Positions 34,484 through 63,608 of a DNA stretch of 64,000 nt are shown here, one piece after another. The number at the start of each line of letters is the position of its first letter. The first letter of the stretch is position 1. Made by a program: the position numbers and the translations under genes. Where the stretch lies: the NCBI GenBank assembly GCA_965202835.1, contig CBDBCA010000006.1, positions 806,035 through 870,034 of the forward strand. The letters run 5' to 3'. The notes beneath the pieces were generated by a model. The model saw nothing but the letters and a program-made list of their open reading frames with translations. It had not been told where the DNA came from and made no database searches. This stretch comes from Alphaproteobacteria bacterium. Its GTDB lineage: Bacteria > Pseudomonadota > Alphaproteobacteria > MPNO01.

Positions 34484-35005
34484 ATGTATCTCGCCAGCTT
34501 CCGCTACCGCGAGAGGGAATGCGTCGGAGCGCGGATCGACGACGACCGTCTGATCGACTTCGCGGGTGCGGCGACGGCGCTGGGCGGGTCGTGGGATTAC
34601 GGCTCGATGCTGGAGCTGGTGCTGGGCGGCGCGGAAGCCGGGGGCGCCGCTTGCCGCCTGCTCGATGCCGCCCGCGCCGATCCCGCGGTGGAACGCATCC
34701 CGGCGGGCGATGTCGTGTGGCATCCGCCGATCCCGCGCCCCGGAAAGATCTGCGGCGTGGCGCTCAACAACTCGGCGTCGGATGCGCGCAAGATTTCCTC
34801 GCCCGACCACCCGATGTTCTTCCTGAAACCGGGCACCTGTCTGGTCGGGCATCTGCAGCCCATCGTCGCGCGGCGGCAATATATGGGGTTTCATCCCGAG
34901 CCCGAGCTGGGAGTCGTGATATCCCGCCTCGCCCGGAACCTGGACCCGGAGAAGGCGATGGATCACGTATACGGGTACACCATCGTGCGCACCATCCGGT
35001 GCTAA
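34484..35005 (+). pseudogene. 5' half of a fumarylacetoacetate hydrolase (FAH) family gene, truncated by insertion of the element
   Basis: FAH-family sequence runs up to ...AMDHVYGYTIV (ending at 34986). It is followed by 5 unrelated codons (RTIRC) and a stop. The in-frame continuation TIVNDVTGNDMRAED... is found at 63598. Confidence 0.8.
34976..34986 (+). repeat. attL core, TACACCATCGT
   Basis: Identical 11-mer to 63598..63608, located exactly where FAH homology stops. Confidence 0.7.
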
Positions 35006-35107
35006 CTATCTGAAAACAGGGTCGTTTTCTCTCCCAAACCGAGTTGCAGCCGGAAGAGGTCGTTATCCTTTGCTTCCCCGGCTGCAACCGCAGCCCGGAG
35101 AACGAAA

Positions 35108-36229
35108 TTGCCCAGACCCAACCTCACCAACGCGCGAATCGCGGCGCTCGCGACGTGCAAGACCGCCTACGACATCCGAGACGGGAAGCTCAGGGGCTTC
35201 GGCGTCCGGGTGACGCCTTCCGGGCGCAGGCGCTTCTTCGTCCATTGCCAGCGCCGGGGCGAGCGCATCTGGAAGATCGTGGGCGACGCCGACGCGATGG
35301 ACATCGCCGAGGCGCGGTCTCTGGCCAAGACCATGCTGGCCGCGATCCGCCGGGGAGAGGTAGCCCCTGCCCGGCCCGAGCAGGCCCTCTTCGAGGCCGT
35401 CGCCGAGACCGTGTTCCGGCAGCACGAGCGCCTGTGGAAGCCGCGCACGCTCCATGTCAACCGGTGCTACCTCCGCAACCAGATCCTGCCGCATTTCGCT
35501 GGCCGCAACGTCGCCGGCATCGACAGCCGGGACGTGCGCAACTGGTTCGCCTCGCTGGCCGCCACCCCGGTCGCGGCGGACCGGTCCATGCCCATCCTCT
35601 CCGTCATCATGCGGGAAGCGGAAGCGATGGGTCTCCGACCCGAGGGCTCCAACCCGTGCCGCGGCATCCGCCGCTACCGCAGGAAGGGGCGCGAGCGGTT
35701 CCTGTCCGACGCCGAGATCCGGCGGCTGTCGGCGGTCCTGTCCGAACGGGAGGAAAGCCGGCCCCGCCAGGTTGCAGTTGTTCGTCTCCTTCTGCTGACC
35801 GGGTGCCGCAAAAGCGAGATCCTGACCCTCCGCTGGTCCGACTACCGCGAAGGCCGCCTGTTCCTCCGCGATTCCAAAACTGGACCCCGCACCGTCTGGC
35901 TGTCCCGGCCGGCACGTGCGATCCTCGACCGGTTGCTGCGGGAGGGCCCGTGGATGTTTCCGGCGCCGCGGGCGCGAGGACCACGGGATTCGGATTGGCT
36001 GGACCGCTTCTGGCGGGATGTCCGCGCCGAGGCGGGCTTCGGGGACGTACGCATTCACGACCTGCGCCATACGCATGCCAGCATCGCCCTGAGAGAGGGC
36101 GCGACCGTCCTCGCGATCGGAAAGCTCTTGGGTCATGCCGATCCGCAGACCACCCTCAAATACGCCCATCCCGCCGACGCCATGATCGCCGATGCCGCCG
36201 AGACCGTCGGCGCCGTGCTGGAGGGTTGA
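35108..36229 (+). CDS. tyrosine-type site-specific integrase (DUF4102/P4-like N-terminus)
   Basis: 373 aa. The N-terminus 'LTNARIAAL...YDIRDGKLRGFGVRVTPSGRRRFFV' is arm-binding-like. The catalytic C-terminus is 'HDLRHTHAS...LGHADPQTTLKYAH'. Confidence 0.9.
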   Translation: MPRPNLTNARIAALATCKTAYDIRDGKLRGFGVRVTPSGRRRFFVHCQRRGERIWKIVGDADAMDIAEARSLAKTMLAAIRRGEVAPARPEQALFEAVAETVFRQHERLWKPRTLHVNRCYLRNQILPHFAGRNVAGIDSRDVRNWFASLAATPVAADRSMPILSVIMREAEAMGLRPEGSNPCRGIRRYRRKGRERFLSDAEIRRLSAVLSEREESRPRQVAVVRLLLLTGCRKSEILTLRWSDYREGRLFLRDSKTGPRTVWLSRPARAILDRLLREGPWMFPAPRARGPRDSDWLDRFWRDVRAEAGFGDVRIHDLRHTHASIALREGATVLAIGKLLGHADPQTTLKYAHPADAMIADAAETVGAVLEG

Positions 36230-36232
36230 GAC

Positions 36233-37378
36233 GTGCCTGCAAGGGACCGAAGGAAGCTCACCGACGCTGCCATCGAGCGCCTCCGCCCCCGTGCGGGGGA
36301 ATTTACCGTCTGGGACAGAAGCGTACCCGGCCTCGGGGTGCGGGTGCGCCCGACCGGCGGCAAGACCTGGGTCCTGCTGGAGGAGATCGGGGGACGCGCG
36401 AAGCGTGTATCGCTTGGGCCGGTATCGACGATGGCGGTGGCGGAAGCGCGGCGCGCGTGCCATCAGCGCCGGGCAAGACCGGAGCCGGCGGAGCCCGCCC
36501 GCCCCATGAGCGCCGTCCCGCTCTTCCGCGAGTTCGTGGAAGGAGAGTGGAAGGGGCCGCATTTCCACCGCTACAAGCCGGCGACGCGCAGGGGCGTGTC
36601 GTCCGCGCTGGAGGGACGGATATTGCCGGCCTTCGGATCGAGACCGCTGGACCGCATTACCCCGGCGCAGGTGCGGAAATGGTTCGACGCCGCCAGCGGA
36701 GCCGCCCCCGGGGGCGCGAACAGGGGGCTCCAGCTCCTCCGCCAGATCATGAATTTCGCCATCGCCCGGGGGCATATCGAGAAAAACCCGACACAGGGCA
36801 TCCGGCCCAACCGACGCCGGAAACTCACGCGGTTTCTCTCGCGCGAGGAAATCGCCCGACTGCACCGGGCGCTGGACCGGCGGACCGGAGAAGGTGGCCG
36901 CCGGCAGGCGGACATCATCCGGCTGCTGCTTCTGACCGGATGCCGCAGGGGCGAAATCCTCGGGTTGCGCTGGTCCGAGGTCCAGGGGGACGGCATCTTC
37001 CTTGCCGATAGCAAGACCGGGCCGCGACGGGTGCCGCTCAACTCCCAGGCTCGAACCATCCTCGACAGGCAGCCGCGGACGGAAAGTCCCTTCGTGTTCC
37101 CTTCCCCGCTCGATCCGTCCCGGCCGCGCAGCCGCCAACTATCGATCTGGGACCGGGTTCGCGAGGAGGTCGGCATCGAGGACGTTCGCCTTCACGACCT
37201 TCGCCACACGCATGCCAGCCACGCGGTGATGAACGGCGTGCCCGTGCCCGTCGTCTCGCGCCTGCTCGGACACTCCAACGTGCGCATGACGCTCAGATAC
37301 GCCCATCTTGGGGACCGCGAGGTCGAGGAAGCAGCGGAGCGCGTGGGGCAGGCCATCGGCGAACTCATGGGCCTGTAG
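36233..37378 (+). CDS. second tyrosine-type integrase, paralogous to the first
   Basis: 381 aa with a GTG start 4 nt after the stop of integrase 1. It has the same domain pattern ('LTDAAIERL...FTVWDRSVPGLGVRVRPTGGKTWV'; 'HDLRHTHASHAV...LGHSNVRMTLRYAH'). Confidence 0.9.
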   Translation: MPARDRRKLTDAAIERLRPRAGEFTVWDRSVPGLGVRVRPTGGKTWVLLEEIGGRAKRVSLGPVSTMAVAEARRACHQRRARPEPAEPARPMSAVPLFREFVEGEWKGPHFHRYKPATRRGVSSALEGRILPAFGSRPLDRITPAQVRKWFDAASGAAPGGANRGLQLLRQIMNFAIARGHIEKNPTQGIRPNRRRKLTRFLSREEIARLHRALDRRTGEGGRRQADIIRLLLLTGCRRGEILGLRWSEVQGDGIFLADSKTGPRRVPLNSQARTILDRQPRTESPFVFPSPLDPSRPRSRQLSIWDRVREEVGIEDVRLHDLRHTHASHAVMNGVPVPVVSRLLGHSNVRMTLRYAHLGDREVEEAAERVGQAIGELMGL

Positions 37379-37643: not shown

Positions 37644-38123
37644 GTGCCAGTGAAATACACACCGGGTCAACTCCGGAGCGTGATAGGTATCTCACAACCG
37701 ACTTATCGCCATTGGAAGAAGGCTTTAGGGCCACTTCGTCGGGAGGTGGGACATAGTCCATGTTTCACTGCCGGGGATCTGCTTGCTGTCGCAGTGGTAC
37801 GTAGCCTGACGGCCGATTTTGCTATTCGCGTCGGCGCGATCTCAGCCGTTGCCGAAGCCCTGTTCAACACTTGCAATGTGGGGGTTTGGCCGGCTCTTGA
37901 GCGCGGCAAGCTAGTCGTCGATCTGGCAAACAAGGACCTAAAGCTGTTATCGGAGGCCGATATCATCCTTTGTGACGCAGCGGTATTGGTTATTCCGATC
38001 GGACCAATAGTCGGGAAACTGCGTAGTGCGCTACTGACTGAGGGGCAACTTGATAGTCAAGAGTCGCTTCGTTTTCCACCAACGCCGTTGCCATCGAAGA
38101 TTGAGGCAGCGACGAGGCTATAG
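37644..38123 (+). CDS. hypothetical protein with a putative N-terminal HTH; first gene of the MTase-PIN operon
   Basis: 159 aa with a GTG start. 'LRSVIGISQPTYRHWKK' looks like a MerR/AlpA-type HTH. Its stop is 2 nt before the MTase start, and it marks the start of lower-GC DNA. Confidence 0.5.
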   Translation: MPVKYTPGQLRSVIGISQPTYRHWKKALGPLRREVGHSPCFTAGDLLAVAVVRSLTADFAIRVGAISAVAEALFNTCNVGVWPALERGKLVVDLANKDLKLLSEADIILCDAAVLVIPIGPIVGKLRSALLTEGQLDSQESLRFPPTPLPSKIEAATRL

Positions 38124-38125
38124 CT

Positions 38126-40621
38126 ATGAATGCCGTTGACGTCATCGCTGAGGCCGCACGATCTACAGGCTACCGTGAAGAAGCGATCGTACGCGACTAT
38201 CTATTCGCCGACGTCCTCGATCCTACAGACACGACCAGGGAGGTTGCTCTGGCTGCATTCACTCAGACACCTCCATCGTACCGATCAGCTGCTCTCGCCG
38301 CGGTATCGTTACCAGGGGGAGGTGACACGACAGAATTGGTGCAGGCGCATCGAGCCCTAGGTGCACCTCTTCTATTCGTCATTGAGGGAGAACAACTTTC
38401 ACTCTGGCAGGTTCGCGGCGACACACCGCGCTGCCTATATAAGAACCTGCGCGTTGGGGATGTATCGGGAGTGTTCGAACGGAACCAGGAAGAATGGTGC
38501 CCCGACGCGATCCATCGAGCAAAATCGATCGGTGCCATCGACGAGAGCTATCAGTTGGACTTCGTGGATCTCGGTTTATTGCCGGCATTAGAAGGTGAGA
38601 TTCATGCCAAACTTGATCGTCTAATAGTCGACTCGCTTGTCGCTGCGACCGATGACCAAGACGGAAGGCTACCAGAAACGCGAATACTTTTTCCGGTCCT
38701 ATTTCGCCTGCTAGCTGCAAAAGTTTTGCAGGACCGAGGTCACCCCGACGCCGAGGGCTGGAATGTCAATAATCTAGTCGAGACATTGCATGGCATCGAA
38801 TCTTACTATTCTCTTCCATCCGTAATGATAAGAGGTCATCGAAATCTACGGTCAGCCTTCTCAGCCGCTTGGGAATGTCTGCGTAAAGGTCTTAGCTTCG
38901 CCAATATATCATCAGACGACCTCGCCTTTGTCTACGAGAATACGCTCGTTACTCCCGAAACCAGAAAGCATTTTGGTACACATAGTACGCCGCGGCAGCT
39001 TGCCGAATATGCGGTGGCAAGATTAGAGCTTCATCGATATGAGCCAGACGCATTACGCATTTATGAACCATTTACGGGTGCTGGAACATTCCTTGTGTCA
39101 GCGCTTCGGCATATGCGGGAATTGTTGGCGGTCGAATGGAGCGACGCCCAACGTCATGACTTTCTTGTTGAACGTATTTCAGGTGATGAAATCGATCCTT
39201 TCGCCTGTGAAGTGGCAAAACTGTCTCTGATACTGGCAGATTATCCCAATAGGAATAGCTGGTGTATTACACAAACAGATCTTTTCAAAGATAATTTACT
39301 AATGGAGCACATGTCTGGTCGTAATATCATTTTGTGTAATCCGCCATTTGAAAATTTCAATGGCGAGGAACGATCTCGTTATCCCATCGCTAACACCTCC
39401 CTTTCCAAACCTACCTTGGCGTTAGAAGCGGCGCTTGCCGCGCACCCGTTTGCGCTTGGCTTCGTTCTTCCCCATTCATTCCTTACGAGCAAAAAATACG
39501 CCAGACAGAGAAAAAAAATCGAGAAATTATATGACCACGTAGAATTGGTGGAGTTACCCAAACATATATTTCGCGCTTCTGTCATTGAATCATCTCTCCT
39601 GATTGCCCGCAAGTCTTGCACAAGACAACCCTCTATGCTCAGTTTGCGGTCAACGGAGGTGTGGGGTCGTGATCGCACCGACTTCCTGAAAACCGGAAGG
39701 ATCACGACGGCACGTAACGAGCAGCGTGTTATTCAGGATTTTCCTACCGGTGACCTTTGGATTCCAGCGCTCAAGGACATTTGGGACTATCAGAAGGCGC
39801 TACCGCGATTGGACGACCATTTCATCATTCACCGAGGACTTGAGTGGCAATCGGATCAAGATGCAGCTTGGAGCAATCACCGTCGAACCGGTTACAGGCG
39901 GGGATTCCACACAGCGCGCAAGTTGAAGCAGTTTCAGTTGCCGAAACCCGTATGGCTCGACTGTAGGGAAGAAAGACTACGAGGCGAGGCAATCAAGCTC
40001 CCGTGGCACCAGCGGAAACTTGTTGTAAATGCCGGACGTTTAAGCATTGGTCCGTGGCGCATTGCGGCAATGACAGACTGGGACGGATTGTTGTGCTCTC
40101 AACAGTTCTTTGGACTATGGCCGCGTGAGCATCTTTCAGATCGTCAGCTTCTGGCATACACGGCGACCTTGAACGGTCCACTTGCAAATGCCTTTCTCGC
40201 CACTCATTGGTCTGCAAAGGGCATTAGAATCTCCTCCGTTCGCCAAATACCGATACCTCCATTTCTACCATTACATATTGGAGAATTAGTGGCAGAATAT
40301 GCTTTTAAGAAACGTGCAGAGAGCGGATTAGATTTGTTGGACGGCGAACAGCAAGAAGCTCTTGCAAAGATTGATGCGGAGGTCCTAAGGTCTTATGATT
40401 TACCCCTAAGATTTGAGCGGCAATTGTTGAAGTATTTTCGAGATGCAAAACGTCCTGTTGCACACAATTGGCAACACTGGGACGTAATGGATCCGACTCC
40501 AGGCCTTACGCTTGCAGAACGTACGTCTAGACGCTTCGACGTTCAAACCTCATGGATTCGTGAGGTCTTCCAGCCTTTGCCAGATGATGAAGCAGAGATA
40601 CTGAGAGCGTATGGGGGATGA
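38126..40621 (+). CDS. N6-adenine DNA methyltransferase-like protein (gamma-class, Eco57I/TaqI-like) with large N- and C-terminal extensions
   Basis: 831 aa. It has motif X 'FGTHSTPRQLAEY', motif I 'YEPFTGAGTF' (39062-39091) and motif IV 'NPPF' (39338-39349). The C-terminal ~400 aa is TRD-like. I recognised no PD-(D/E)xK nuclease motif in the N-terminal ~290 aa. Confidence 0.75.
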   Translation: MNAVDVIAEAARSTGYREEAIVRDYLFADVLDPTDTTREVALAAFTQTPPSYRSAALAAVSLPGGGDTTELVQAHRALGAPLLFVIEGEQLSLWQVRGDTPRCLYKNLRVGDVSGVFERNQEEWCPDAIHRAKSIGAIDESYQLDFVDLGLLPALEGEIHAKLDRLIVDSLVAATDDQDGRLPETRILFPVLFRLLAAKVLQDRGHPDAEGWNVNNLVETLHGIESYYSLPSVMIRGHRNLRSAFSAAWECLRKGLSFANISSDDLAFVYENTLVTPETRKHFGTHSTPRQLAEYAVARLELHRYEPDALRIYEPFTGAGTFLVSALRHMRELLAVEWSDAQRHDFLVERISGDEIDPFACEVAKLSLILADYPNRNSWCITQTDLFKDNLLMEHMSGRNIILCNPPFENFNGEERSRYPIANTSLSKPTLALEAALAAHPFALGFVLPHSFLTSKKYARQRKKIEKLYDHVELVELPKHIFRASVIESSLLIARKSCTRQPSMLSLRSTEVWGRDRTDFLKTGRITTARNEQRVIQDFPTGDLWIPALKDIWDYQKALPRLDDHFIIHRGLEWQSDQDAAWSNHRRTGYRRGFHTARKLKQFQLPKPVWLDCREERLRGEAIKLPWHQRKLVVNAGRLSIGPWRIAAMTDWDGLLCSQQFFGLWPREHLSDRQLLAYTATLNGPLANAFLATHWSAKGIRISSVRQIPIPPFLPLHIGELVAEYAFKKRAESGLDLLDGEQQEALAKIDAEVLRSYDLPLRFERQLLKYFRDAKRPVAHNWQHWDVMDPTPGLTLAERTSRRFDVQTSWIREVFQPLPDDEAEILRAYGG

Positions 40622-40627
40622 GCGATC

Positions 40628-41131
40628 GTGGATGGGTGCATTCTTGACACTAGCGTTTTATCCATTTGCTTGGATTCTTCACACTCGCGGCACGACGACA
40701 TACAAACCGAATTTACAAAGATAGAGAAGAATGCAGTGTTATTTCTTTCCACGATTTCTTTGGGGGAGTTGGAATTCGGTGTGCGGCTTGCAAAGGTGTT
40801 TGGTGGGAGACCGCTGCCGGTGCTTGAGCAGATGTTGATCGATGCACGAAGGTATGGAATTCTGGATGTGACTAGCCATACCTCCGCATCTTATGGTGAA
40901 TTGAAATCCAATCTTGCGGAGACCTATCTCGCGGACGCAAGCCGTAGGGGCCGACGACGTTGGGTGGAAGATTGGATTGATAAGACGAGCGGGAAAAGGC
41001 TTCAGATAGATGAGAATGACTTATGGATATGTGCTCAGGCCAAGGAACGCGATTTGTTGGTTGTCACTGCAGATAAACGCATGCAGCGGATCGCTGATGC
41101 AGACACGGAAGTGCGTCTCCGTATAATATGA
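40628..41131 (+). CDS. PIN-domain nuclease (VapC-like) without a recognisable VapB partner
   Basis: 167 aa with a GTG start. The PIN acidic residues are in the contexts 'ILDTSVL', 'LGELEFG', 'ENDLWICAQA' and 'VVTADK'. It is in the same reading frame as the MTase, separated by TGA plus 2 codons. Confidence 0.75.
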   Translation: MDGCILDTSVLSICLDSSHSRHDDIQTEFTKIEKNAVLFLSTISLGELEFGVRLAKVFGGRPLPVLEQMLIDARRYGILDVTSHTSASYGELKSNLAETYLADASRRGRRRWVEDWIDKTSGKRLQIDENDLWICAQAKERDLLVVTADKRMQRIADADTEVRLRII

Positions 41132-41427: not shown

Positions 41428-42078
41428 TCACTCCCACCACCAACCCATCATCCCTTCTTCCACATACGCGTGGACATCCAGCTTGCCGTCGCCGAAACGG
41501 ACGGTATTCACAATATCGTTCAATAGCTCCTTTTCATCGGACGCGTTTCTCGATCTCCACAGGGAGACGAACAATTCTGTCTCCCCGCCGTAGTGGTCGA
41601 CGAGCGTCGTGAAAATCGCGTTCGTTTCGCCTTCGACTAGCTCCATCGCCAGTTCGTACAGCCGCTCGTCGTCGACGTCCTCGTCTTCGTCAAGACTTTC
41701 CGCGACGGTTTCGAGTGTGCCCATCCGACGAGCGAGCTCCCACAGATCCTCGGTGTCCACATTCAAGGAATCGAGATACCGAGAGAGGGGAACGTGTTCG
41801 GAAAAATATCCCCCGAGTTCCGAGAAATTCCCGGCCGCCTGGTAAATGCCGAGATACATCGCCAACAGGCAAACAGCCCGTAGCCTGGGCACCGTCCGGT
41901 CGAACCCGACTTCCTCGGACTCGGCTGCGCCGGTCAGACCCGCCTTCTCCAACGCGCCCCAAGATTCCCTGTACCATCCAAGTTCGGGCGTGTCGACGAT
42001 GACGCAACCGTGTTCCCGGAAGAATCCCTCGACCTGAACCCACCGGAGCGATTCCCTTTCAGATGCCGAGGTCGTCAT
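41428..42078 (-). CDS. hypothetical, extremely acidic protein co-transcribed with hsdRMS
   Basis: 216 aa with about 45 Asp/Glu versus about 17 Lys/Arg by my count, including a 'SLDEDEDVDDE' run. Its start overlaps the 3' end of hsdS by 20 nt. I recognised no family. Confidence 0.6.
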   Translation of the reverse strand: MTTSASERESLRWVQVEGFFREHGCVIVDTPELGWYRESWGALEKAGLTGAAESEEVGFDRTVPRLRAVCLLAMYLGIYQAAGNFSELGGYFSEHVPLSRYLDSLNVDTEDLWELARRMGTLETVAESLDEDEDVDDERLYELAMELVEGETNAIFTTLVDHYGGETELFVSLWRSRNASDEKELLNDIVNTVRFGDGKLDVHAYVEEGMMGWWWE

Positions 42079-43300
42079 CGCTCCCTCTGTTGGGTTCGTC
42101 GTGCGCGATATCCAGCAACCGATTCATCAGAGAGGCGGTCAGGGCATTGGCACTCTCGGAGCCGGAATGTCCAACGTTACCCGCGGACCGAACGCTGTTG
42201 AGGATTTGCACGAATTTACTTTGCCGCTCCAACGGTGGAACAGGAAGCTTCAAGCTTTCCAAGCTACGAATGTTGACGTTGTAGTTTCCCGCAGTGGTCC
42301 GTGCCAGCCGTAAAATGGCCTGCCGCATCGGCGGTAGTTCAAGGCATGTCGAGACATATCCGGGGATTGCGCGCGCACTCGACGCAAGACGTAATCGAAT
42401 AAGGTACGAAGCGTATGCTGCTTTGCGGCCATCGGTGAATACTGCGCATCTGCCTACATAATCCGGATTGCCGTTTGTACGAACGAACAAAAGGTCTCCT
42501 TGTTCCAAGAGGAGTGTTTCTGTTTCTCTTTCAGTAAGAGAAGTAAATTTAATGTCATGCCAATTGATCGCGTTTCCCAATACGTTGGGAATACGCAGGA
42601 TCGGAATATCCCCATTGCGTGGCTCACTTAGGCATTTCCTTGAAGTGCCGTACCGAAATTCGTGGGCGAGTTGCGCAAGGCTCTCAATACCCCAACCCAT
42701 CGGATTCTCGACCGGATCGCCGAACATCCTGACGAACAGCGCGGGGACGAATTCCCGCAGCCGGTCCTGAGCCTGCGCGCGCAGCTGCTCGATTTTCGCC
42801 GCCCGGTTCAGAATGCCGACGATCCGCTGTTGCTCATCGAGCAATGGAAGGGGAACAGGGAGCTCCGCAACATCTTTGGGATACAAGTGTAGCCCGGTTA
42901 CCGCGCCCCTCAGCGCCGAGCGTCCCGCGTCGGAGTTCAACCACCAGTATATTAGCGCTGGCTCGATTCGGTCACGATTAGGACGCACAATAGTCCATTC
43001 GCCAACCGGTAAGGAACGTTCCACTTCCTTTTCTGCGAAGTACAGTTTGCTGCCGACATGAGAAGCACTATGTGCGGAATTTAGAATTAGAATGTCGTTT
43101 TCGTTTATCCACTTGGACGGGTATTTTAATGCAAAGTCGGTATCCACAAAATTGTCAAATTCACCAGAAAAACGTCGATCTGGTCTAACATCTTTAACCT
43201 TTAATACTGGATGTCCCGATGATCGCTTGTCCTTCTTCGAGGGTGTTTTCCCGTTGAAGACTTCCGCCACCTCACCAATGGGAACATTGGTGCCGCTCAT
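42059..43300 (-). CDS. hsdS: Type I restriction-modification system specificity subunit
   Basis: 413 aa with two target-recognition halves separated by the conserved 'LPLLDEQQRIVGILN...' and 'LPVPPLERQSKFVQIL' helices. It has an ATGA overlap with hsdM. Confidence 0.9.
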   Translation of the reverse strand: MSGTNVPIGEVAEVFNGKTPSKKDKRSSGHPVLKVKDVRPDRRFSGEFDNFVDTDFALKYPSKWINENDILILNSAHSASHVGSKLYFAEKEVERSLPVGEWTIVRPNRDRIEPALIYWWLNSDAGRSALRGAVTGLHLYPKDVAELPVPLPLLDEQQRIVGILNRAAKIEQLRAQAQDRLREFVPALFVRMFGDPVENPMGWGIESLAQLAHEFRYGTSRKCLSEPRNGDIPILRIPNVLGNAINWHDIKFTSLTERETETLLLEQGDLLFVRTNGNPDYVGRCAVFTDGRKAAYASYLIRLRLASSARAIPGYVSTCLELPPMRQAILRLARTTAGNYNVNIRSLESLKLPVPPLERQSKFVQILNSVRSAGNVGHSGSESANALTASLMNRLLDIAHDEPNRGSDDDLGI

Positions 43301-44928: not shown

Positions 44929-44938
44929 GGGTGTGTTC

Positions 44939-47050: not shown

Positions 47051-47093
47051 CGCTTCACGTGCGCCGACCGCGACGGCAATTCGGGCGCGGCTG

Positions 47094-55551: not shown

Positions 55552-55757
55552 CCACCGGGGCAACCGGGCCGCGGGCACGGCGTCGCCGGGTCGAGCCCCG
55601 TCAATCTCCCCGCGCCACGGGGCGAGAATCCGCGCTTCGGCCGGAGTCGCCGATGGTATCCTGCCCCCGGATCGGCCGGCGCTGCGCGGGCGGGGGAGGC
55701 GCGCGGCGGCGGGTCTTTCGGACATCGGTCCGGCGGCCGGGGGAAGGGGAGCGCGCG

Positions 55758-56888
55758 ATGGCGTCTGGCAACAACGACGGGAAGGGTCGGCCTCCGGCGG
55801 GTGACGACGACCGGAGTCTCCTGTTCGGCGTGACGGACGACGGCGGAGATGCGGGGGCGGGCCCCGGCGTTCCGCCCGGGGCCGGCGAGACGCCCGCGGA
55901 GACCGCCGCGGCGCTGGAGGAGATCGCCGCCACCCTGGGACGGCAGGAAGCGCGGCTGTCGGCGCTGGAGGAGATGCTCGCGGCGGAGCGTGCGTCCGGA
56001 TCCCGACTTTCCGATGTCGCGACGCAGATCGTGGGGGCTGCGGCGAAGATCGCCCGGGCGGCGGAGGCGGTGGCGAGGATCGAGAAGACGACCGCCGACG
56101 CGGCCCGGTTCACCGGCGACACGAAGGAGGCGACGGGCGTTCTTCATTCGGAGGCCGGCAAGCAGATCGCGGGTCTGAAGGAGGGGCGGCGCGAGCTCGA
56201 CGCGGCGGTGGCGGAGCTGGCCAGCCGGGCGGAAGGGCTGAAGGCGCGGGAGGACAGGCTGGGCGCGGCCATCGGGGAGCTGCGCGCGGTGTCGAAGCAG
56301 GTGAGCGGCCTCGCGGACCGGGTCGCCGCGCGGCTGGAGACGCTTTCCAACAATTATTCGAGTTGGACGGAGTCGGCGGCGGCGCACGGGCGGGCGATCG
56401 CGGCGCTGTCGAAGGACCTCCGGGACGGCGGCGCCCGGATTCGGCGGAGCGTCGACGAGACCGCGGAGGCGCAGCGGGAGCTCTCCGCGAGGATTCTGGG
56501 CAACGTCGAGGACTACGCGCGCGAGAACGAGAGCTTCCTGAAGCGCTTCGCGGCGGGCGGCGAGAAGGTTCTCGGGGCCATCCGGCGCGAGCGGAAGGCG
56601 GTGCGGCGCTGGACGGTGCCGGCGCTGTCGGCGGCCCTGGTGGTCGCGGTTCCGTCGTTCGCGGCGGTGGGCGCGCTGGCGCAGAAGGAGTTCCGCTTCT
56701 TCGAGCCGTACGACGAGACGGGCGGCTGGAAGCAGCTGATGTGGGACCGCCATGGCGGGCGGGTCAAGGCGTGCCTGATCGAGTCCGAGCGCAGGGGGAA
56801 GGTTCTGCGTTGCGAGCTGCGGGTCGACGGCAGGGGATTATTCGGAACGCCGGCCGATGAGCTCCCGCCGATCCCCGGCGAAGGCTGA
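55758..56888 (+). CDS. coiled-coil protein with a C-terminal TM segment, upstream partner of the relaxase
   Basis: Start at the ATG at 55758 (MASGNNDGKG) with a purine-rich RBS. It has long Ala/Glu/Arg heptad-like regions and the TM segment 'WTVPALSAALVVAVPSFAAVGALA'. Its stop is 3 nt before the relaxase start. Confidence 0.6.
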   Translation: MASGNNDGKGRPPAGDDDRSLLFGVTDDGGDAGAGPGVPPGAGETPAETAAALEEIAATLGRQEARLSALEEMLAAERASGSRLSDVATQIVGAAAKIARAAEAVARIEKTTADAARFTGDTKEATGVLHSEAGKQIAGLKEGRRELDAAVAELASRAEGLKAREDRLGAAIGELRAVSKQVSGLADRVAARLETLSNNYSSWTESAAAHGRAIAALSKDLRDGGARIRRSVDETAEAQRELSARILGNVEDYARENESFLKRFAAGGEKVLGAIRRERKAVRRWTVPALSAALVVAVPSFAAVGALAQKEFRFFEPYDETGGWKQLMWDRHGGRVKACLIESERRGKVLRCELRVDGRGLFGTPADELPPIPGEG

Positions 56889-56891
56889 CCG

Positions 56892-59800
56892 TTGGTCGCG
56901 AGCCTGAGCGAGGTGGGCTCGACGGCGACCACGGTGGCCTATTTCGCGCGCGAGGGCTATTACGCGAAGGACGACCGGAGGCACTACCTGGCGAGCTTCT
57001 GGCACGGCGGCGCGGCAAGGGCGCTGGGCCTGCCGAAGCATGTTTCCTCCAGGGTGTTCGAGAAGATCCTCACGGGCTTCGTGCCGGGGACGGAGATCCG
57101 GCTGGGCCGCGCGCGGGACGGCGAGCACCAGCACCGTCCGGGGCTCGACCTCACCCTGTCGGCGCCGAAGTCGGTGTCGCTGGAGGCGCTGCTCCACGGC
57201 GACCGGCGAGTGGTGACCGCGCACGACCGGGCGGTGCGGGCGACGCTGGACTGGGTCGAGGCGGAGCTGTTGCAGACCCGCGGCTACGACCCGGCGACGG
57301 GTCGGCGCCCGCGGGTGGCGGCGGACGGTCTGGTGGCGGCGACGTTCCGCCACCTGACCAGCCGGGACCAGGACCCGCAGCTCCACACCCACTGCATCCT
57401 CGCCAACATGACGCGCAACCGGGCCGGCGAATGGCGCAGCATGGAGCCGACCGAGATCCGCCGGAGCGTGAAGCTGATCGGGGCCTATTACCGCCAGGAG
57501 CTGGCGAGCCGGCTGATCGGGATGGGGTTCCGGATCGAGGCCACGATGATCGGCGGCGTGCCGGGCTTCGAGATCGCGGGCTATCCGCGGGCGCTGCTGG
57601 AGGAGTTCTCGTCGCGCCGGCGCGAGATCCTGTCGTGGCTGGAGAAGCACGGCCTTCCGTTCTCCTCGGCGCTGACGCAGCAGGCGGCGCTGATCACCCG
57701 CGAGCGCAAGGTCGAGCGGGACCTCGACGAGCTGAAGGCGGAGTGGACGGCGCGGGCCGGGGCGCTCGGAGTTGCGCGGGACAGGAGCGTGGCCAGGCCA
57801 GGAAGGGGGCGGAGGAAGAAGGCCTCGAAGGAGACCGCCCGGAAGGCGGGCCGGCCCTATGTCCGGACGGCGGAACAACTCACCCCCGAGCCGCCCGGGC
57901 TGAGCGCGCGCGAGATCGTCTGGCGGGCGGTGGAGCACCTGGCGGAGCGCGCCTCGGTGTTCCGGGAGAGCGACATCAGGGCGATGGCGCTGAGCCACGC
58001 GCCGGGGCGGCACGGGCTGGCGGAGATCGACGCGAGCATCGCCGGGCTGACGGCGGACAGTCATCTCGTGGAAGCCAACCTTCGGGGCGGGCGCTCGTTC
58101 GTGACCGGCGACGCGCTGCGTTCGGAGCGCGAGATCCTGTCCCGCATGCGGGAGGGGCAAGGGCAGGCCCGGGCGCTGGCGCCGGAGGCCCGCGTCTCCG
58201 AGCGTCTGGAGGAGACGACGCTCACCGAGGGCCAGAAGGAGGCGGTGCGGACGATGCTGCTGTCCGGCGACCGGATCGTGGCGGTCCAGGGCGCGGCGGG
58301 GACCGGCAAGACAACGATGCTGCGCGAGGCGCTGGGTCTGATCGGCGACCGCCCGGCGATCCTGCTCGCCCCCTCGGCCGCGGCCGCGCGGGTGCTGGCC
58401 ACCGAGACCGGCGCCCGCGCGCGCACCCTGCAATGGTTCCTGACCCGCTACGGCGACATCGGCAGCGCCGAGAAGATGGACGCCGCCCGCCGCGAGCACC
58501 AGGGCTCGGTGCTGGTGCTAGACGAATCCTCGATGGTGTCGACGGCGCAGATGGAGCTGTTGATGCGGATTGCCGAGAGGCTCCGCATCGCGCGGCTGGT
58601 GCTGGTGGGGGACCGGGGCCAGCTGCGCGCGGTGACCGCGGGCGAGCCGTTCCGGGCTCTCCAGGACGCCGGGATCGAGACGGCGGAGATGGACGAGATC
58701 ATGCGCCAGGAGGATCCCGCCCTGAAGCAGGCCGTCGAGCGGCTCCAGGACGGCCGGCCGGCCGAGGCGCTGGGCGGGCTCGCCGACGTGTGCGAGGTGC
58801 CGCACGAGGCGCTTGCGGCGACGGCGGCGCGGCTCTGGCTGGAGCTCGATCCGGAGAAGCGCGCCGGAACGGCGATCCTGGCGCCCACCCACTTCATCCG
58901 GGCCGAAATCCACCGCATCGTGCGCGACGGGCTCGCGGATGAGGGCGTGCTGCACGGGCGCGAGATCGAGATCGACCGGTTCGTCAACCGGCATCTCACG
59001 GCGGCGCAGCGGGCGGACGTGCGCAACCACGAGCCGGGCGACTTCGTCATCTTCCACTCGCGCGTGCCGCCTCTCAGGGTCCAGGAGGGGGATGCCTGCC
59101 GGATCGAACGCACGGAAGGCGAGTTCGTGTTCCTCGATCACCCCACCGGGCGGACGATCCGCATCCGGCCGGGCGACAGCTGGGTGCGCTACCGCTTCGC
59201 GGTCCATGAGACGGCGCGCATCCGGCTCCGGGCGGGCGACCGGATCCGCTGGACGGCGAACGACAAGCGGTACGGGCTGGTCAACGGCGGCGAGGCGGTG
59301 GTGGAGAAGATCGGCACGCGCCGGGTGCGGTTCGCGCTGGCCGAGGGACGGACGCTGACGCTATCCCGCGACGACCCCCGGCTGCGCCATCTCGACCATG
59401 CCTGGAGCTCGACGGTGCACGCCGCCCAGGGGATGACGCGGGACGCGGCGATCGGGGTGCTCGATACCGGGCACGGCCGTCTGTCCGGTCAGGCGGCGCT
59501 CTACGTGGAGGCGAGCCGGGCGCGGGAGCGGTTCGTGCTGGTCACCGACAACCGCGACACCCTGGCGGAGGCGCTGGAGGAGAACGACGGCGCCGGCATG
59601 ACGGCGCGCGAGGCGGTCGGTGAGGGGGTCGAACCGCCCCCCGCCAGCCCCGGACACCGATCCGGGGGGACGGTTGCCGGCATGCTGCGCGAGCTGCGCG
59701 ACGACTGGCGCGCGCTCACCGCCCGGGCGGAGGCGGAGAATGCCGAGCTCAACCGCATGGAGGGCTACGCGCGGATCGTGACCGGGGCGGCGGCGGCGGA

Positions 59801-62093
59801 GGGCCACGACCTGCCGGCGGACCTCGCGGCCTTCGCGGCCGAGGTGCGGCGCCGCGACGCGGAGATCGCCGAACGGCGGAGGGCGGAGCTCGCCTTCGTG
59901 CAGCGGGCCGACCGGCACTGCCGGACGCAGCCGCTCCTGCGATGGGCGGCGGCGGAGCGCGGCCGGCCGGTGTCCGAGCTGCCCGAGCACGCGCGATGGC
60001 GCGCCGACGGTGAGGCGCTGGCGGAGACCGGGCGCGCGTTGCGGGACGGGAGGGGCATCGCCGGCCGGGTCGCGGCGGCGCTCGGGCGGATACTGCGCAG
60101 CGTCCGCCTCGACGACGCCATCCGGTTCGGGGAAGACGCGGTCGCCCACGAGACGGTGGCGCGCGCGGCGGGGATCGAGGCCCGCGACATGGCGGGGGCC
60201 GAGACCCTGGCCGAGCGCGCGCGGGCCCTCGGCGGGGACGGTCTGCCGGAAGACCTGCGCCGGACGGTGGCGGCATGGAGCGCCAAGACCCCCGCGCCGG
60301 AGCCCGCGCGCCGGGAGGTCGAACGAGACCCGCGCCACGAGGCGGCGGGGCGCCGGATCGAGGGGTTCCTGCGCGACTGCCGCGACCATGCGGGCCGGGC
60401 GGCCGCGCTCGGCCCCACCGACCGTGGCGCCCGGGAGGACGCGACGCTGGACGGGTGGCTTCAGCGGGCGAACGAGCTCCGCCGCGACGGGCTCCGGATG
60501 CTGGGCGAGGGCGCGGGCGTGAGCCTCGACGATCCGGCCCGCATCCGGCTCGCCGGCGCGGACGACGAGCGCGAACGGGTGCGCGATGCCGTCGACGCGC
60601 TGTCCGGCGAAGCGCTTCGGCTCCGCGCGGAGGCGTTCGTGGGCCTCCACCGTAACGTCGAAAGCGAGGCCCGGGAGGCCGGCTGCGATCCGGCCGACCT
60701 CGCCGGCTGGCAGTCCCTTCGAGACCGGGCGGAGGCGCTGCGGGACGAGCCGGGGCTCGCGCCGGAGGCGAGGGAGGCCGCCCGCGCGGTGCTGGCCCAC
60801 GATGTCCGCGTCGCGGTCGAGACCGCCCCGGTGGCGGAGTTCCTCGAACAGGGCGCCCGGCACCTGGACCGCCGCGCCGAGCTGGAAGGGGAGGCCCATG
60901 AGCCCCGGGTCGGGGCCGTCGCGCTCGATGCGATGTCGGCCTGGCGGGAGGAATCGGCAGCGCTCCGCGAGACCGCCCACTGCCTGCTGGGCGGCGGCGA
61001 CGCGACGGAAACCCGGGCCGCATCGCGGCTGGAAAACATGCCGCGCCTGCAAGGCCGGGTCGGCGAGGTTCTCGACCGGCTGGAAGCGGTGGAGCTACTG
61101 GACGAGAGCGCGGCGTTCCGCGCCGCCGCCGAAACGGTCGAGGCCCGCGCCCGGCAGGCCGATACCCTGCCCCTTCATGCCGGGGGCTACGACCGTGCGA
61201 CAGAGATGGCGAGGGAGATCGCCGGGCGGGCAGAGCAGGCGGCATCGGTGCGCCGGGAAGCGGGCGCGTGGCTGGAGCGCGACCGCGGCTGGAGGGAAGA
61301 GCTCGCCTCGGTGCCGGCGCTCACCGGGGCGGAGGGGCGGCATGCCGATCCGGCCGAACGGCGCGCGGCCGCCCATCTGCCCGCCGTGGCCGGGGCGGTG
61401 CGCCGCGAGACCGACCGGCTCGCCGGGCTGCCGCCGCTGACGGAGGGCATTGCCTGGACCGGGGACGCGCCGCTGATCGCGGGCGACCGGATCGCCTTCC
61501 GGGCCGAGGGCCGGACCTGGCAGGCGGCGGTGGTCTCCCCGGGCGAATCGGGCGGCGTGCGCGGCGGCGACACGCTCCGGCTCAGGATTGCGGACCCCGC
61601 GAAGGAGGCCACGCCCGCCGGGGGCCGGCTCGTCGAGATCGGCGCGAGCGCCCTCGCGGGGGGCGACTGCGTCCGCGCCCCGTGGTCGGACGAGGGGCTG
61701 CGCGAGCTGGAGCTCGCCCGGCAGCGTTCGGTGCCGAGCGGCGCCTGCCGCCTGCCCTGCCCGGAACCCGTCCCCGGAGACCGCATCGCCTGGACCGAGG
61801 CCGCCGGGCCGGCAGGCGAGGTGCGGACGATCGAGGCCGAAGTCCAGACCCGGACCGACGCGGCCGGCGGTTACGCGCTCGACCTCCGTGTGATCCGCGC
61901 GGCCGGCCCCGGCGCGCCCGAGACCGGGAGCACGATCGCGCGCTCCGCCGAGGCGGTCGCCGCGCGCGGCTGCTACCGCGAGCCGTGGAAGGACGAGGCG
62001 CGGCGCGAGCGCATCCTCGGCCCGCCGCAACAGGAACAGCAGACCCGGCAGCAGAAACAGGATCGTTCCCGGGACCGGGGGTTCAGCCTGTGA
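56892..62093 (+). CDS. MOBF-family conjugative relaxase/helicase (TrwC/TraI-like) with a long low-complexity C-terminal extension
   Basis: 1733 aa with a TTG start. It has the relaxase motifs 'AYFAREGYYAKDD' (Tyr pair) and 'HLTSRDQDPQLHTHCILAN' (3-His), and a RecD-like helicase Walker A 'GAAGTGKTT' ending near 'LYVEASRARERFVLVTD'. The last ~830 aa are rich in Ala, Arg and Glu. Confidence 0.9.
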   Translation: MVASLSEVGSTATTVAYFAREGYYAKDDRRHYLASFWHGGAARALGLPKHVSSRVFEKILTGFVPGTEIRLGRARDGEHQHRPGLDLTLSAPKSVSLEALLHGDRRVVTAHDRAVRATLDWVEAELLQTRGYDPATGRRPRVAADGLVAATFRHLTSRDQDPQLHTHCILANMTRNRAGEWRSMEPTEIRRSVKLIGAYYRQELASRLIGMGFRIEATMIGGVPGFEIAGYPRALLEEFSSRRREILSWLEKHGLPFSSALTQQAALITRERKVERDLDELKAEWTARAGALGVARDRSVARPGRGRRKKASKETARKAGRPYVRTAEQLTPEPPGLSAREIVWRAVEHLAERASVFRESDIRAMALSHAPGRHGLAEIDASIAGLTADSHLVEANLRGGRSFVTGDALRSEREILSRMREGQGQARALAPEARVSERLEETTLTEGQKEAVRTMLLSGDRIVAVQGAAGTGKTTMLREALGLIGDRPAILLAPSAAAARVLATETGARARTLQWFLTRYGDIGSAEKMDAARREHQGSVLVLDESSMVSTAQMELLMRIAERLRIARLVLVGDRGQLRAVTAGEPFRALQDAGIETAEMDEIMRQEDPALKQAVERLQDGRPAEALGGLADVCEVPHEALAATAARLWLELDPEKRAGTAILAPTHFIRAEIHRIVRDGLADEGVLHGREIEIDRFVNRHLTAAQRADVRNHEPGDFVIFHSRVPPLRVQEGDACRIERTEGEFVFLDHPTGRTIRIRPGDSWVRYRFAVHETARIRLRAGDRIRWTANDKRYGLVNGGEAVVEKIGTRRVRFALAEGRTLTLSRDDPRLRHLDHAWSSTVHAAQGMTRDAAIGVLDTGHGRLSGQAALYVEASRARERFVLVTDNRDTLAEALEENDGAGMTAREAVGEGVEPPPASPGHRSGGTVAGMLRELRDDWRALTARAEAENAELNRMEGYARIVTGAAAAEGHDLPADLAAFAAEVRRRDAEIAERRRAELAFVQRADRHCRTQPLLRWAAAERGRPVSELPEHARWRADGEALAETGRALRDGRGIAGRVAAALGRILRSVRLDDAIRFGEDAVAHETVARAAGIEARDMAGAETLAERARALGGDGLPEDLRRTVAAWSAKTPAPEPARREVERDPRHEAAGRRIEGFLRDCRDHAGRAAALGPTDRGAREDATLDGWLQRANELRRDGLRMLGEGAGVSLDDPARIRLAGADDERERVRDAVDALSGEALRLRAEAFVGLHRNVESEAREAGCDPADLAGWQSLRDRAEALRDEPGLAPEAREAARAVLAHDVRVAVETAPVAEFLEQGARHLDRRAELEGEAHEPRVGAVALDAMSAWREESAALRETAHCLLGGGDATETRAASRLENMPRLQGRVGEVLDRLEAVELLDESAAFRAAAETVEARARQADTLPLHAGGYDRATEMAREIAGRAEQAASVRREAGAWLERDRGWREELASVPALTGAEGRHADPAERRAAAHLPAVAGAVRRETDRLAGLPPLTEGIAWTGDAPLIAGDRIAFRAEGRTWQAAVVSPGESGGVRGGDTLRLRIADPAKEATPAGGRLVEIGASALAGGDCVRAPWSDEGLRELELARQRSVPSGACRLPCPEPVPGDRIAWTEAAGPAGEVRTIEAEVQTRTDAAGGYALDLRVIRAAGPGAPETGSTIARSAEAVAARGCYREPWKDEARRERILGPPQQEQQTRQQKQDRSRDRGFSL

Positions 62094-62544: not shown

Positions 62545-62849
62545 CAGTCTTCCGACCCGGGCGCGGCGAGCGCGCGGTGCATCGCGGCGAGCGCCCCGAA
62601 CAGCGACACCCCGGTTCCCGGAAGCGCCTCGAGCAGCGCCCGGCGCAGCCGGTCGAGCTCGGCCACCCGGTCGTACAGACGCCGCTGCTCCTCCTCCGAA
62701 AGCACGATCCCGGGCTCGCCCCCGGCATCGTCCTTCAGCGCGCAGGCCACCACGAAGCGCGAGACCGGCATGCCCGCCTCCCTGGCCCGCTCGCGGATGC
62801 GCGCCCGCTCGAGCGGGGTGCAGCGCAGCGACCGGCGCAGCACCGCCAT
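62544..62849 (-). CDS. ribbon-helix-helix (MobC/CopG-like) protein, paralog 2 of 3
   Basis: 101 aa from the internal Met (MAVLRRSLRCTPLERARIRERAREAGMPVSRFVVACAL). It has ATGA overlaps on both sides. Confidence 0.6.
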   Translation of the reverse strand: MAVLRRSLRCTPLERARIRERAREAGMPVSRFVVACALKDDAGGEPGIVLSEEEQRRLYDRVAELDRLRRALLEALPGTGVSLFGALAAMHRALAAPGSED

Positions 62850-63232
62850 CAGGGCCGCGGCGCCGGGCCGCCGCCGGGATCGGCGCTCGGCGACGCCGCC
62901 CGCCAGCGCTCCGCCGCGCCCGCGTCGCTCAGCCGGTCGAGCTCCGCCTCCCGGTCGAGCCAGGCATCCACCGCGTCGCCCACCGACGCCCAGCGTTCCT
63001 CCAGCCCCATGTCGGCCATGCGCGCCTCCTCCAGCTTCGACAGCAGCAGCAGCTCGCGCACCGCGCGGCGCAGCACGGTCGCGGGCAGCGGGTCGGGCTG
63101 CGTCGCCCGGTGAACCAGGTAGCGCGAGACCTCCATGCCGGCCGCCTCCGCGAGCTCCCGGATGCGCGCCCACTCGCTGGCGGTGGCCATCACCGCGTGC
63201 TGGCTGCGCCGCCCCTCCGGCGCCCGGCTCAT
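62849..63232 (-). CDS. ribbon-helix-helix (MobC/CopG-like) protein, paralog 1 of 3
   Basis: 127 aa. '...AVMATASEWARIRELAEAAGMEVSRYLVHRA' follows an RHH pattern. It is the first gene of the three-gene minus-strand operon. Confidence 0.6.
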   Translation of the reverse strand: MSRAPEGRRSQHAVMATASEWARIRELAEAAGMEVSRYLVHRATQPDPLPATVLRRAVRELLLLSKLEEARMADMGLEERWASVGDAVDAWLDREAELDRLSDAGAAERWRAASPSADPGGGPAPRP

Positions 63233-63597
63233 CGGGCCGCCCCCGGCGCGGCGCCTCCGGAGGGCGTGAAAAATCTCCCCAATACTCCTGTACTTCTCCT
63301 AATATATGGGTTCCCGAATATGCCAATCGACACACCGAACAGAGTCATGCCCAAAGCCCCTACAAACCTTTTCGACATGACGCATCACTCCTATATAATC
63401 AAGTTCACAGACAGAACGATACATCCCTACTTCCCGAAATTCCACAATCCTCGAATGTCCCCCATTCAGTATGTCCCGCGGAAACACGCACAGACTCCTT
63501 GTCATCCCCTCTAACCCACAGTAATATAACGACTTACTCAGAGAAACAACGACCCCATCCCGAACATGACCCACCGACAGTGCAACCCTAAGACTTC
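63233..63597. other. ~365-bp non-coding, AT-richer, strongly G-depleted (plus strand) region between the RHH operon and attR; candidate attP arm and/or oriT
   Basis: My manual count over 63281-63600 gives about 13% G versus about 30% C. The motif TCCCGAA occurs three times, at 63312, 63432 and 63558. Confidence 0.5.
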
Positions 63598-63608
63598 TAC
63601 ACCATCGT
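63598..63608 (+). repeat. attR core, TACACCATCGT
   Basis: Identical 11-mer to 34976..34986, located exactly where FAH homology resumes. Confidence 0.7.

Follow-up and report, generated by a model that had tools for sequence, protein, structure and literature searches.

A putative integrative mobilizable element with tandem DUF4102 integrases inside a FAH-family gene of an alphaproteobacterium

What separates the two halves of a FAH-family gene in this alphaproteobacterial genome, and how did it get there? The gene lies in a stretch of 64,000 nucleotides (contig CBDBCA010000006.1, positions 806,035 to 870,034, assembly GCA_965202835.1), which we call the window, and its halves are 28.6 kb apart. 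A first-pass annotation, made from the sequence alone, had described the intervening DNA as an integrative element that interrupts the gene near codon 165, is bounded by an 11-bp direct repeat, carries integrases at one end and a relaxase at the other, has a mosaic content of guanine plus cytosine (GC), and does not reconstitute the gene. The analysis described here bears out this description and refines it in the role of the integrases and the choice of target. The best explanation of the locus as a whole, to which we give a probability of about 0.85, is that an integrative mobilizable element (IME), a genomic island unable to conjugate by itself, was inserted by a crossover at an 11-bp match within the FAH-family gene.

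The interrupted gene and its empty sites

The gene and its borders are as follows.

34484..34986, + strand: 5' part of the split FAH-family gene, codons 1–167 plus two bases (translation, Pfam on the joined product, orthologues L001–L014)
34976..34986, + strand: attL core, left copy of TACACCATCGT, of the form H-ACACC-N5 (one copy of this 11-mer per empty site in eight of the nine nearest relatives)
63598..63608, + strand: attR core, right copy of TACACCATCGT
63598..64000, + strand: 3' part of the split FAH-family gene, from Tyr165, extending past the window end

The window contains exactly two copies of the 11-mer TACACCATCGT, both on the + strand, and no copy is expected by chance (100 shuffles). 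The open reading frame (ORF) that begins at 34484 runs to ...MDHVYGYTIV, then reads five element-encoded codons, RTIRC, and stops at 35003–35005. The continuation of the gene is found in frame at 63598, where it reads YTIVNDVTGNDMRAED... and remains open to the window end. There is an in-frame TAA at 63589–63591, three codons 5' of this point, and therefore no element-encoded N-terminus is fused to the right half. Thus, the gene is interrupted at codons 165–168 and is not restored by the element. When 34484–34986 and 63609–64000 were joined in silico, a 298-residue product was obtained. It shows a single continuous Pfam FAA_hydrolase match (E = 1.5e-42, residues 99–286, profile positions 21–184 of 214), which crosses the junction at residue 168 and places the product in the FAH family. 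The insert between the halves is 28,611 bp in length, or 28,622 bp with one copy of the repeat.

An orthologue scan with one genome per species found the gene uninterrupted across the junction, and free of stops, in 14 relatives (L001–L014), with protein identities of 61–93%. These are labeled as Defluviicoccus, Alphaproteobacteria, Hyphomicrobiaceae, and Rhodospirillaceae metagenome-assembled genomes. Eight of the nine nearest relatives have GGCTACACCATCGTCAAC at the corresponding position, which gives the 11-mer once per empty site; the exception is L008, where the site differs at two bases. The reconstructed empty site is collinear with the relatives across the junction, with DNA identities of 74–92%, including a 951-nt alignment with L001 at 91.7% identity and a single 4.4-kb alignment with L003. 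In L002–L005 and L007, the alignment extends into the syntenic upstream gene for a 1154-residue pyruvate carboxylase. These collinear empty sites, together with the syntenic neighbor, show that the 28,611-bp insertion is real and lineage-specific. Thus, the FAH-family gene is split precisely at the repeat and is intact in relatives. Two tRNA genes of the host flank, at 780 and 26270, are unoccupied.

The pyruvate carboxylase gene (30960–34424) is located directly 5' of the FAH-family gene (34484 onward), and this pairing is kept in the five relatives just named. Oxaloacetate decarboxylation is known for some FAH-family enzymes, and the two genes may be functionally linked.

The integrase pair, its relatives, and their junctions

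The features at the two ends of the insert bear on how it moves.

34987..35107, + strand: conserved left end, the 121-bp int1 leader (alignments of 5 and 18 family members; motif survey)
35108..36229, + strand: Int1, tyrosine integrase of 373 residues, Arm-DNA-bind_3 (DUF4102) and Phage_integrase (Pfam, alignment, dN/dS)
36233..37378, + strand: Int2, tyrosine integrase of 381 residues, same domain set as Int1 (Pfam, alignment, dN/dS)
56892..62093, + strand: TrwC-type (MOBF) relaxase with AAA_30 helicase domain, 1733 residues (Pfam TrwC 4e-75, AAA_30 1e-47)
62128–62544 and 62849–63232, − strand: two paralogous NikA-like ribbon-helix-helix mobilization accessory genes (Pfam at or just under cut-off; internal repeat)
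63299..63597: low-GC right end
63299–63574, − strand: 91-residue ORF in the right end
63540–63555, − strand: inverted copy of the left-end motif, GGGTCGTTGTTTCTCT

The integrases are thus at the left end and the relaxase at the right. Int2, which begins 3 nt after the stop codon of Int1, is 41% identical to it. Both have an Arm-DNA-bind_3 and a Phage_integrase domain and retain the catalytic R-K-H-R-H-Y, and they belong to the DUF4102 (IntSXT/P4-like) integrases, whose catalytic set is R-K-H-R-H/W-Y. No gene for type IV secretion or a coupling protein was found with Pfam among the ORFs in 34987–63597, and the unassigned ORFs of the insert are all too small for a coupling protein; an oriT was not located. 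The insert therefore combines its own integrases, attachment repeats, and empty sites in relatives with a relaxase and two NikA-like genes that lack a type IV secretion system and coupling protein, as expected of an IME. Capsid, tail, terminase, and lysis families are absent from the Pfam matches of the large ORFs scanned (PHROGs was not searched), and the insert does not qualify as a prophage.

Is the integrase tandem peculiar to this insert? Int1 has thousands of database relatives, of which the best 120 are 73–90% identical; the named sources among these 120 are Defluviicoccus, Rhodospirillales, and unclassified (alpha)proteobacteria. The search for other occurrences and their insertion sites, which the first-pass annotation had advised, gave about 45 related loci from ENA, NCBI, and JGI assemblies (metagenomic). 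In every locus with enough sequence, an Int1 orthologue (59–90% identity) is followed by an Int2 orthologue, as a rule after a gap of 3–25 nt, and after about 60 nt in L110 and L111. The pairwise ratio of nonsynonymous to synonymous substitution rates (dN/dS) against the window copies is 0.16–0.30 for both Int1 and Int2, and Arg, Lys, His-x-x-Arg, His, and Tyr are invariant in the four Int1 and four Int2 sequences aligned. Therefore, both integrases are maintained by selection. As judged from these comparisons, the tandem is a conserved pair under purifying selection and not a duplication or an accident, and the linkage of the two genes suggests that they act jointly.

The approximately 120 bp between attL and int1 is conserved across the family (alignments of 5 and 18 members), and by anchoring on it, we collected 25 left junctions, all with different host flanks. 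All 25 have the same architecture: H-ACACC, five variable bases, and then the element, which begins with (N)CGCACC-N3/4-GGTGCTAACTAT, also written (N)CGCACC-N3/4-GGTGCTAAC, with the palindrome form CGCACC-N3/4-GGTGC. ACACC is invariant, and the base at −1 is T in 13 junctions, C in 8, A in 4, and G in none. The window repeat, T+ACACC+ATCGT, conforms to this rule. The uninterrupted target is known in four cases: the FAH-family gene, orfA of an insertion sequence (IS) of the IS3 type (intact copy in L098), the terminal repeat of an IS256-type element, and an hsp20 gene at its ribosome-binding site and start codon (L136). In each of the four, the target itself supplies ACACC and the next five bases, and host sequence gives way to element sequence exactly five bases past ACACC.

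In the window, the left end contains G-CGCACC (34988–34993), ATCC, GGTGC (34998–35002), TAACTATCTGAAAACA, GGGTCGTTTTCTCTCC (35019–35034), a variable hairpin, and a GGAGAA ribosome-binding site. The conserved TTTTCTCTCC of the leader can pair with the GGGAGAA Shine–Dalgarno sequence, and compensatory changes are seen in the variable hairpin that lies between the two. In L094, both arms of the GCACC-N3/4-GGTGC palindrome are altered, to GCACT/AGTGC, the one double change seen. This leader may regulate the translation of the integrases or contain sites to which proteins bind. Two candidates for attR in other loci did not hold up. In L096, a perfect 11-mer match lies 9.9 kb downstream, but this is the second terminal repeat of the IS256-type element; in L108, a candidate with one mismatch was validated neither by reading frame nor by Pfam.

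Comparison of the junctions shows that most family insertions lie inside genes, with at least 14 junctions adjoining a frame with coding-type codon bias. In Pfam, a TauD target is truncated at profile position 102 of 267 and an amidase at position 388 of 445, a Lon-like protease is without its protease domain, and the relaxase of another element is cut after its helicase domain; an alpha/beta hydrolase fragment is a further interrupted target. Thus, insertion into protein-coding genes is the norm for the paired-integrase family and not the exception. There is precedent for such targets in the DUF4102 integrases that use prfC and dusA (PMC8138268, PMC4482086). The core ACACCATCG is common to five independent insertions at different loci (the window, L081, L121, L154, and L155); Int1 of four insertions with this core is 86–90% identical to the window Int1, and that of L121 is 70% identical. 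Other lineages carry other five-base extensions. The simplest reading is that the insertion in the FAH-family gene is opportunistic and does not reflect a dedicated specificity.

The family elements also often land in other mobile DNA, as far as their flanks indicate. Upstream of position 9870 in L106, a family member lies within the helicase domain of another element's TraI/TrwC-type relaxase gene. An IS3 with the integrase pair in orfA was found in L083–L092 (e.g., L083 3417–7344), in at least nine genomic contexts and twice in one 5.46-Mb contig; in L085 (1–2271), it is located just downstream of a TrwC gene. Int1 is identical throughout these copies, and an intact copy of the IS is present at L098 12401–13980. 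We rejected the reading of the ten places of this identical Int1 (P0070) as ten insertions, since they represent one insertion into an IS3 that then multiplied. The right side of these copies does not represent a genuine right end but a deletion junction, with an 8-nt microhomology, CAACACCC, and a loss of 166 nt from the IS.

In L136 (9760–13863), an hsp20-like gene has received a complete element of about 4 kb, which encodes Int1 and Int2 and has two further small ORFs. The insertion point coincides with the ribosome-binding site and the start codon of the gene. An imperfect direct repeat of some 120 nt bounds the element and takes the place of the region upstream of the gene. This element appears to be more classical, in that it carries a replacement 5' region of about 120 nt.

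Proposed mechanism and its alternatives

We propose that, in a Defluviicoccus-like alphaproteobacterium, a tyrosine-recombinase crossover occurred between the attachment site of the element and the matching 11-bp TACACCATCGT in the FAH-family gene just downstream of pyruvate carboxylase. Strand exchange would take place within the core formed by ACACC and the next five bases, with ACACC read by the recombinase and the five bases required to match between element and target. This is suggested by the 11/11 identity in the window, the identity through the fifth base in L136, and the shared ACACCATCG. A lineage would then insert wherever its 9–11-bp core occurs, and because such a short core is met in a gene-dense genome, most insertions would fall inside genes. 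The predicted attP junction is CCCTAAGACTTC-TACACCATCGT-GCGCACCATCCGGTGC, from right end to left end, and attB would be the rejoined FAH gene. For transfer between cells, the TrwC relaxase would act with a conjugation machine from another element. The element in its present form would be a fusion of at least two related elements.

Why are there two integrases? Both may be needed, possibly as a XerC/XerD-like hetero-complex in which one integrase reads ACACC and the other CGCACC. We put this forward as an explanation, not a result, because a homodimer does not account for the direct orientation of the two motifs; it is tentative, and we think the odds are somewhat against it. A stronger version, in which the hetero-complex is obligate and the five bases are a freely drifting address, so that the family would be a naturally retargetable integrase system that spreads defense genes, seems unlikely to us. 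If it were true, each change of the five bases would send the island to a new set of 9–11-bp sites, and host genes would be knocked out.

Several observations weigh against the crossover that we propose. Few cases underlie the rule for the right junction, because the window element and that of L136 are the only two that are complete with both ends. Comparison of the right ends of the window, L096, and L083 gave no convincing similarity beyond the ACACC core. ACACC and CGCACC are in direct, not inverted, orientation, which is unusual for a recombinase core. Two more ACACCATCG sites in the window, at 6670 (+) and 58531 (−), both with G at −1, are unoccupied, so either the 9-mer is not sufficient by itself or insertion is rare. 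No excisionase gene was identified in the insert. Excision is a prediction, as neither a circular form nor transfer was observed, nor an unoccupied site within the same population; scans of IMG/VR and JGI metagenomes for the conserved left-end DNA, in circular or other copies, gave no matches, the relatives being in ENA/NCBI assemblies that are outside this DNA-pattern scan. The integrase remnant and IS debris within the insert show past rearrangement, which could have removed excision functions.

The last point leads to the alternative that the insert is a fossil, in which related islands in tandem were fused by deletion and can no longer excise, so that the split gene is a fixed pseudogene. 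The 3' remnant of an Int2-like gene (52192–52341), the rve_3 remnant (55088–55396), a motif inside the insert that resembles an end and coincides with a GC step, and two regions of poor coding character (47–48 kb and 50–52 kb) are what such a history would leave, and similar remnants and broken or fused integrases are present in several relatives. However, the outer repeats match perfectly, neither integrase is truncated or has lost a catalytic residue, and the left end is intact. Furthermore, no stop or frameshift has entered the halves of the FAH gene, which keep 93% identity to the nearest orthologue, and this speaks for a recent event. We give the fossil a small but real chance. That the locus is an assembly artefact, a chimeric contig joined within a repeat, has a negligible one. 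The window probably comes from a metagenome-assembled genome, and its Int1 is recorded on a single 1.93-Mb contig, but a repeat of only 11 bp is much too short to cause a misassembly. The two junctions also interrupt one gene at a single codon, with orientation and frame preserved, and the left junction has the same architecture as in 24 other independently assembled loci.

Two other alternatives concern the choice of site. Transposition of the Tn916, CTnDOT, SE, or Tn554 type would need no homology, and the five to six bases after ACACC would be coupling sequences brought from the previous site. Transposons of this sort with several recombinases have been described (PMC10214605), almost every junction has its own spacer between ACACC and CGCACC, and even the near-identical copies in L096–L098 differ in it (ACGTCA, ACGTGA, and ACGCGA). 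On the other hand, attL, attR, and the empty site of the window share all 11 bases, including the five after ACACC, the identity in L136 also extends through these five, and the sharing of ACACCATCG by five independent insertions is unexpected for a randomly acquired spacer. We regard this alternative as improbable. Conversely, the FAH-family gene could be the dedicated site of a classical site-specific island, as tRNA, dusA, and prfC are for other DUF4102 integrases, instead of one among any H-ACACCATCGN sites that the integrases might use. The repeat is perfect, and it encodes a conserved YTIVND motif, with the DNA kept in eight of the nine nearest orthologues, as is typical of targets of dedicated integrases. 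But none of the 24 other independent left junctions is recognizably in a FAH gene, with gene calls and Pfam for about half of them, and none of the 14 orthologous FAH genes is occupied. The relatives with 86–90% identical Int1 are at other loci, and those examined are in TauD, an alpha/beta hydrolase, and genes of unknown function, including a 544-residue gene beside a ParB-like gene. Furthermore, no replacement gene end is carried. It is thus very improbable that the site is dedicated, and the comparisons indicate that FAH is not a dedicated attachment gene of this family.

What does the insertion at the 11-bp match mean beyond this locus? It is a clean, fully delimited example of a defense-gene island that knocks out a metabolic gene, and it reveals a large island family among Defluviicoccus and allied alphaproteobacteria of wastewater and soil. 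Within this family, nature supplies a set of closely related integrase pairs whose five-base cores differ, which is useful for studying how targets are chosen and changed and might help in the design of integrases directed to a short target of choice. Annotators can rejoin in silico a split gene that lies beside paired "site-specific integrase" genes. To a specialist, the insertion taken singly would be ordinary; the family behind it is of moderate interest and open to direct tests.

Cargo and relation to known elements

The features between the integrases and the relaxase are as follows.

37644..41131, + strand: low-GC (about 50%) cargo operon (Pfam, PADLOC, GC profile)
37644–38123, + strand: 159-residue protein without known function, in the cargo operon
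38126–40621, + strand: 831-residue N6-adenine methyltransferase-like protein (Pfam)
40628–41131, + strand: PIN-domain protein (Pfam)
41428..42078, − strand: 216-residue ORF without family match, overlapping the hsdS end
42059..47137, − strand: complete type I restriction-modification system (Pfam, PADLOC)
42059–43300, − strand: hsdS (PADLOC Specificity_I 3e-75)
43297–44976, − strand: hsdM (PADLOC MTase_I 5e-128)
44939–47137, − strand: hsdR (PADLOC REase_I 2e-77)
47094–47438 and 47460–48089, − strand: two small ORFs, coding status uncertain
48141..48156, − strand: internal copy of the end motif, GGGTCGTTATCGCTCT, at a GC step
48494..49660, − strand: Cys-rich, low-GC 388-residue protein without family match
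50750..51901, + strand: repeated CxxC...CxxC protein without family match, start codon uncertain (129-nt DNA repeats)
52192..52341, + strand: Int2-like integrase remnant, last 50 codons, 150 nt (repeat search, tblastn)
52451..54829, − strand: SIR2-like domain fused to a STAND NTPase, 792 residues, 43% GC (Pfam SIR2_2, nSTAND)
55088..55396, − strand: C-terminal remnant of an IS3-type transposase, rve_3 (Pfam)
55653..56888, + strand: 411-residue coiled-coil protein directly 5' of the relaxase gene (GC3 0.90; weak SMC-like coiled-coil matches only)

As judged from these genes, the cargo is mostly anti-phage defense. The adjacent hsdR, hsdM, and hsdS, all three found by both Pfam and PADLOC, make up a type I restriction-modification system. 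The SIR2-STAND gene has PADLOC matches to ThsA, Dsr1, and LmuA-like SIR2 and is a candidate anti-phage gene. The cargo operon, which begins after 265 nt without family match 3' of Int2, has weak PADLOC matches to MTase, type IIG, and mad2 and may be an uncharacterized defense module. Its 831-residue methyltransferase-like protein has long N- and C-termini without assignment and matches known restriction-modification and MADS models weakly. The roughly 5 kb after the type I genes, which includes the Cys-rich gene and the gene with at least four CxxC...CxxC units in a 129-nt DNA period, is poorly assignable. Scans with Rfam and for promoters and terminators gave no additions within the element. 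In relatives, the visible cargo 3' of the pair is also often defense-related (Eco57I-like enzymes, GmrSD, DNA methylases, and ATPases).

The GC content of the insert varies from 42 to 78% per kb, and the GC steps, integrase remnant, and IS debris show that the element is a mosaic. The 8-mer GGGTCGTT is present three times in the window, in the left end (35019, +), in the right end (63548, −), and at 48141–48156 (−), exactly where the GC content drops from about 70% to 54%. This internal motif may mark the right end of an inner element, preserved as a fossil; no core sequence was found beside it. The remnant at 52192–52341 has 78% amino acid identity to residues 326–375 of Int2. Similar C-terminal remnants lie 3' of an intact Int2 in two other independent elements, L087 (6312–6563) and L141 (14038–14478), and the truncation points differ (residue 326 in the window, 298 in L087, and 235 in L141). 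This suggests repeated tandem insertion followed by deletion, or exchange of cargo next to int2. Hybrid single integrase genes, with residues 1–223 of Int1 joined to residues 239–379 of Int2, are present in L138 (3383–4479), L143 (10001–11096), L144, and L145, and they probably arose by recombination between the Int1 and Int2 paralogues.

How does the family compare with known elements? Islands with tyrosine integrases in protein-coding genes are well known, in prfC (SXT), dusA, and trmE (SGI1), and catalogues of split genes exist (PMC8138268, PMC4482086, PMC8409611, PMC12424338). The window element resembles the DUF4102 (IntSXT/P4-like) IMEs and islands in the arm-binding DUF4102 and catalytic domains, the integrase beside attL, and the short direct repeat (PMC8138268, PMC4482086, PMC8409611), as well as in the relaxase without a mating apparatus and in the defense cargo. 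However, those elements have one integrase and one dedicated target, usually a gene end that is rebuilt, whereas the present family has two tandem integrases, many targets, and a crossover in mid-gene, without rebuilding in the window (L136 does carry a replacement 5' region). [quoted passage not shown] They differ, by their descriptions and not by sequence comparison, in being self-transmissible, in having a tRNA-Leu target, and in the Xer-like type of the pair, whereas the present family has a DUF4102 pair, mostly ORF targets, and no conjugation apparatus.

Other multi-recombinase elements are Tn554 (tnpA, tnpB, tnpC), the SEs (intA-tfp-intB-srap), the GInts (ginABCD), and the RITs (PMC10214605, PMC5385486). 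Like the family, they have at least two tyrosine recombinase genes in an operon at one end, with few or variable targets, and in GInts, variants of the attachment-site sequence can shift target choice. However, the window has no equivalent of tfp, srap, ginC, ginD, or tnpC between or after the integrases, and both of its integrases have the DUF4102 arm. Two integrase genes are present instead of the three integrase-like genes and small helix-loop-helix gene of a GInt, all of which are essential, or the three tandem recombinases, of three subfamilies, of a RIT. Only the 3-nt gap separates Int1 from Int2, where an SE has an intervening gene, the NCBIfam gamma-mobile-trio GmtZ model scores 24 bits against a cut-off of 600, and the repeat is 11 bp. 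Tn554 is set apart by the 11-bp flanking repeat of the window and the tnpC-like gene that was not found there. The SEs and GInts are described as non-mobilizable, whereas the window element has a relaxase, and SEs are reported only in Gammaproteobacteria. The prophages and islands of "active lysogeny" or "regulated gene integrity" also lie in a coding gene that can be restored by precise excision (PMC10111431 and the TIGER/Islander catalogue, PMC12424338). In these cases, though, excision is coupled to a programme of the host or phage, and the element has a specific target, whereas the target in the window looks opportunistic and nothing links excision to FAH function.

A literature search, incomplete in coverage and thus weak evidence of novelty, gave no description of tandem DUF4102 integrase pairs or of Defluviicoccus mobile elements. 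The insertion of islands into genes is itself already known, and what appears to be undescribed is a large IME family with paired integrases, a short core, and mostly gene-disrupting insertions.

More distant tandem pairs were also seen. In L095 (10001–12271 / 14723–17116 region), a second DUF4102 pair, of 394 and 398 residues and 35–39% identical to Int1, is located 2.4 kb downstream of a family pair; the L095 pair is also without the usual left-end motif. A BLAST search of the PLSDB plasmids gave only distant integrases (<45% identity), some of them in tandem pairs. Two such pairs, with overlapping genes, are on plasmids from other orders, those of Aurantiacibacter atlanticus (L101 4901–7203, NZ_CP015441.1) and Photobacterium damselae (L102 617–3228, NZ_CP146975.1); in both, the matched gene is <40% identical to Int1, and the annotation is "site-specific integrase" alone.

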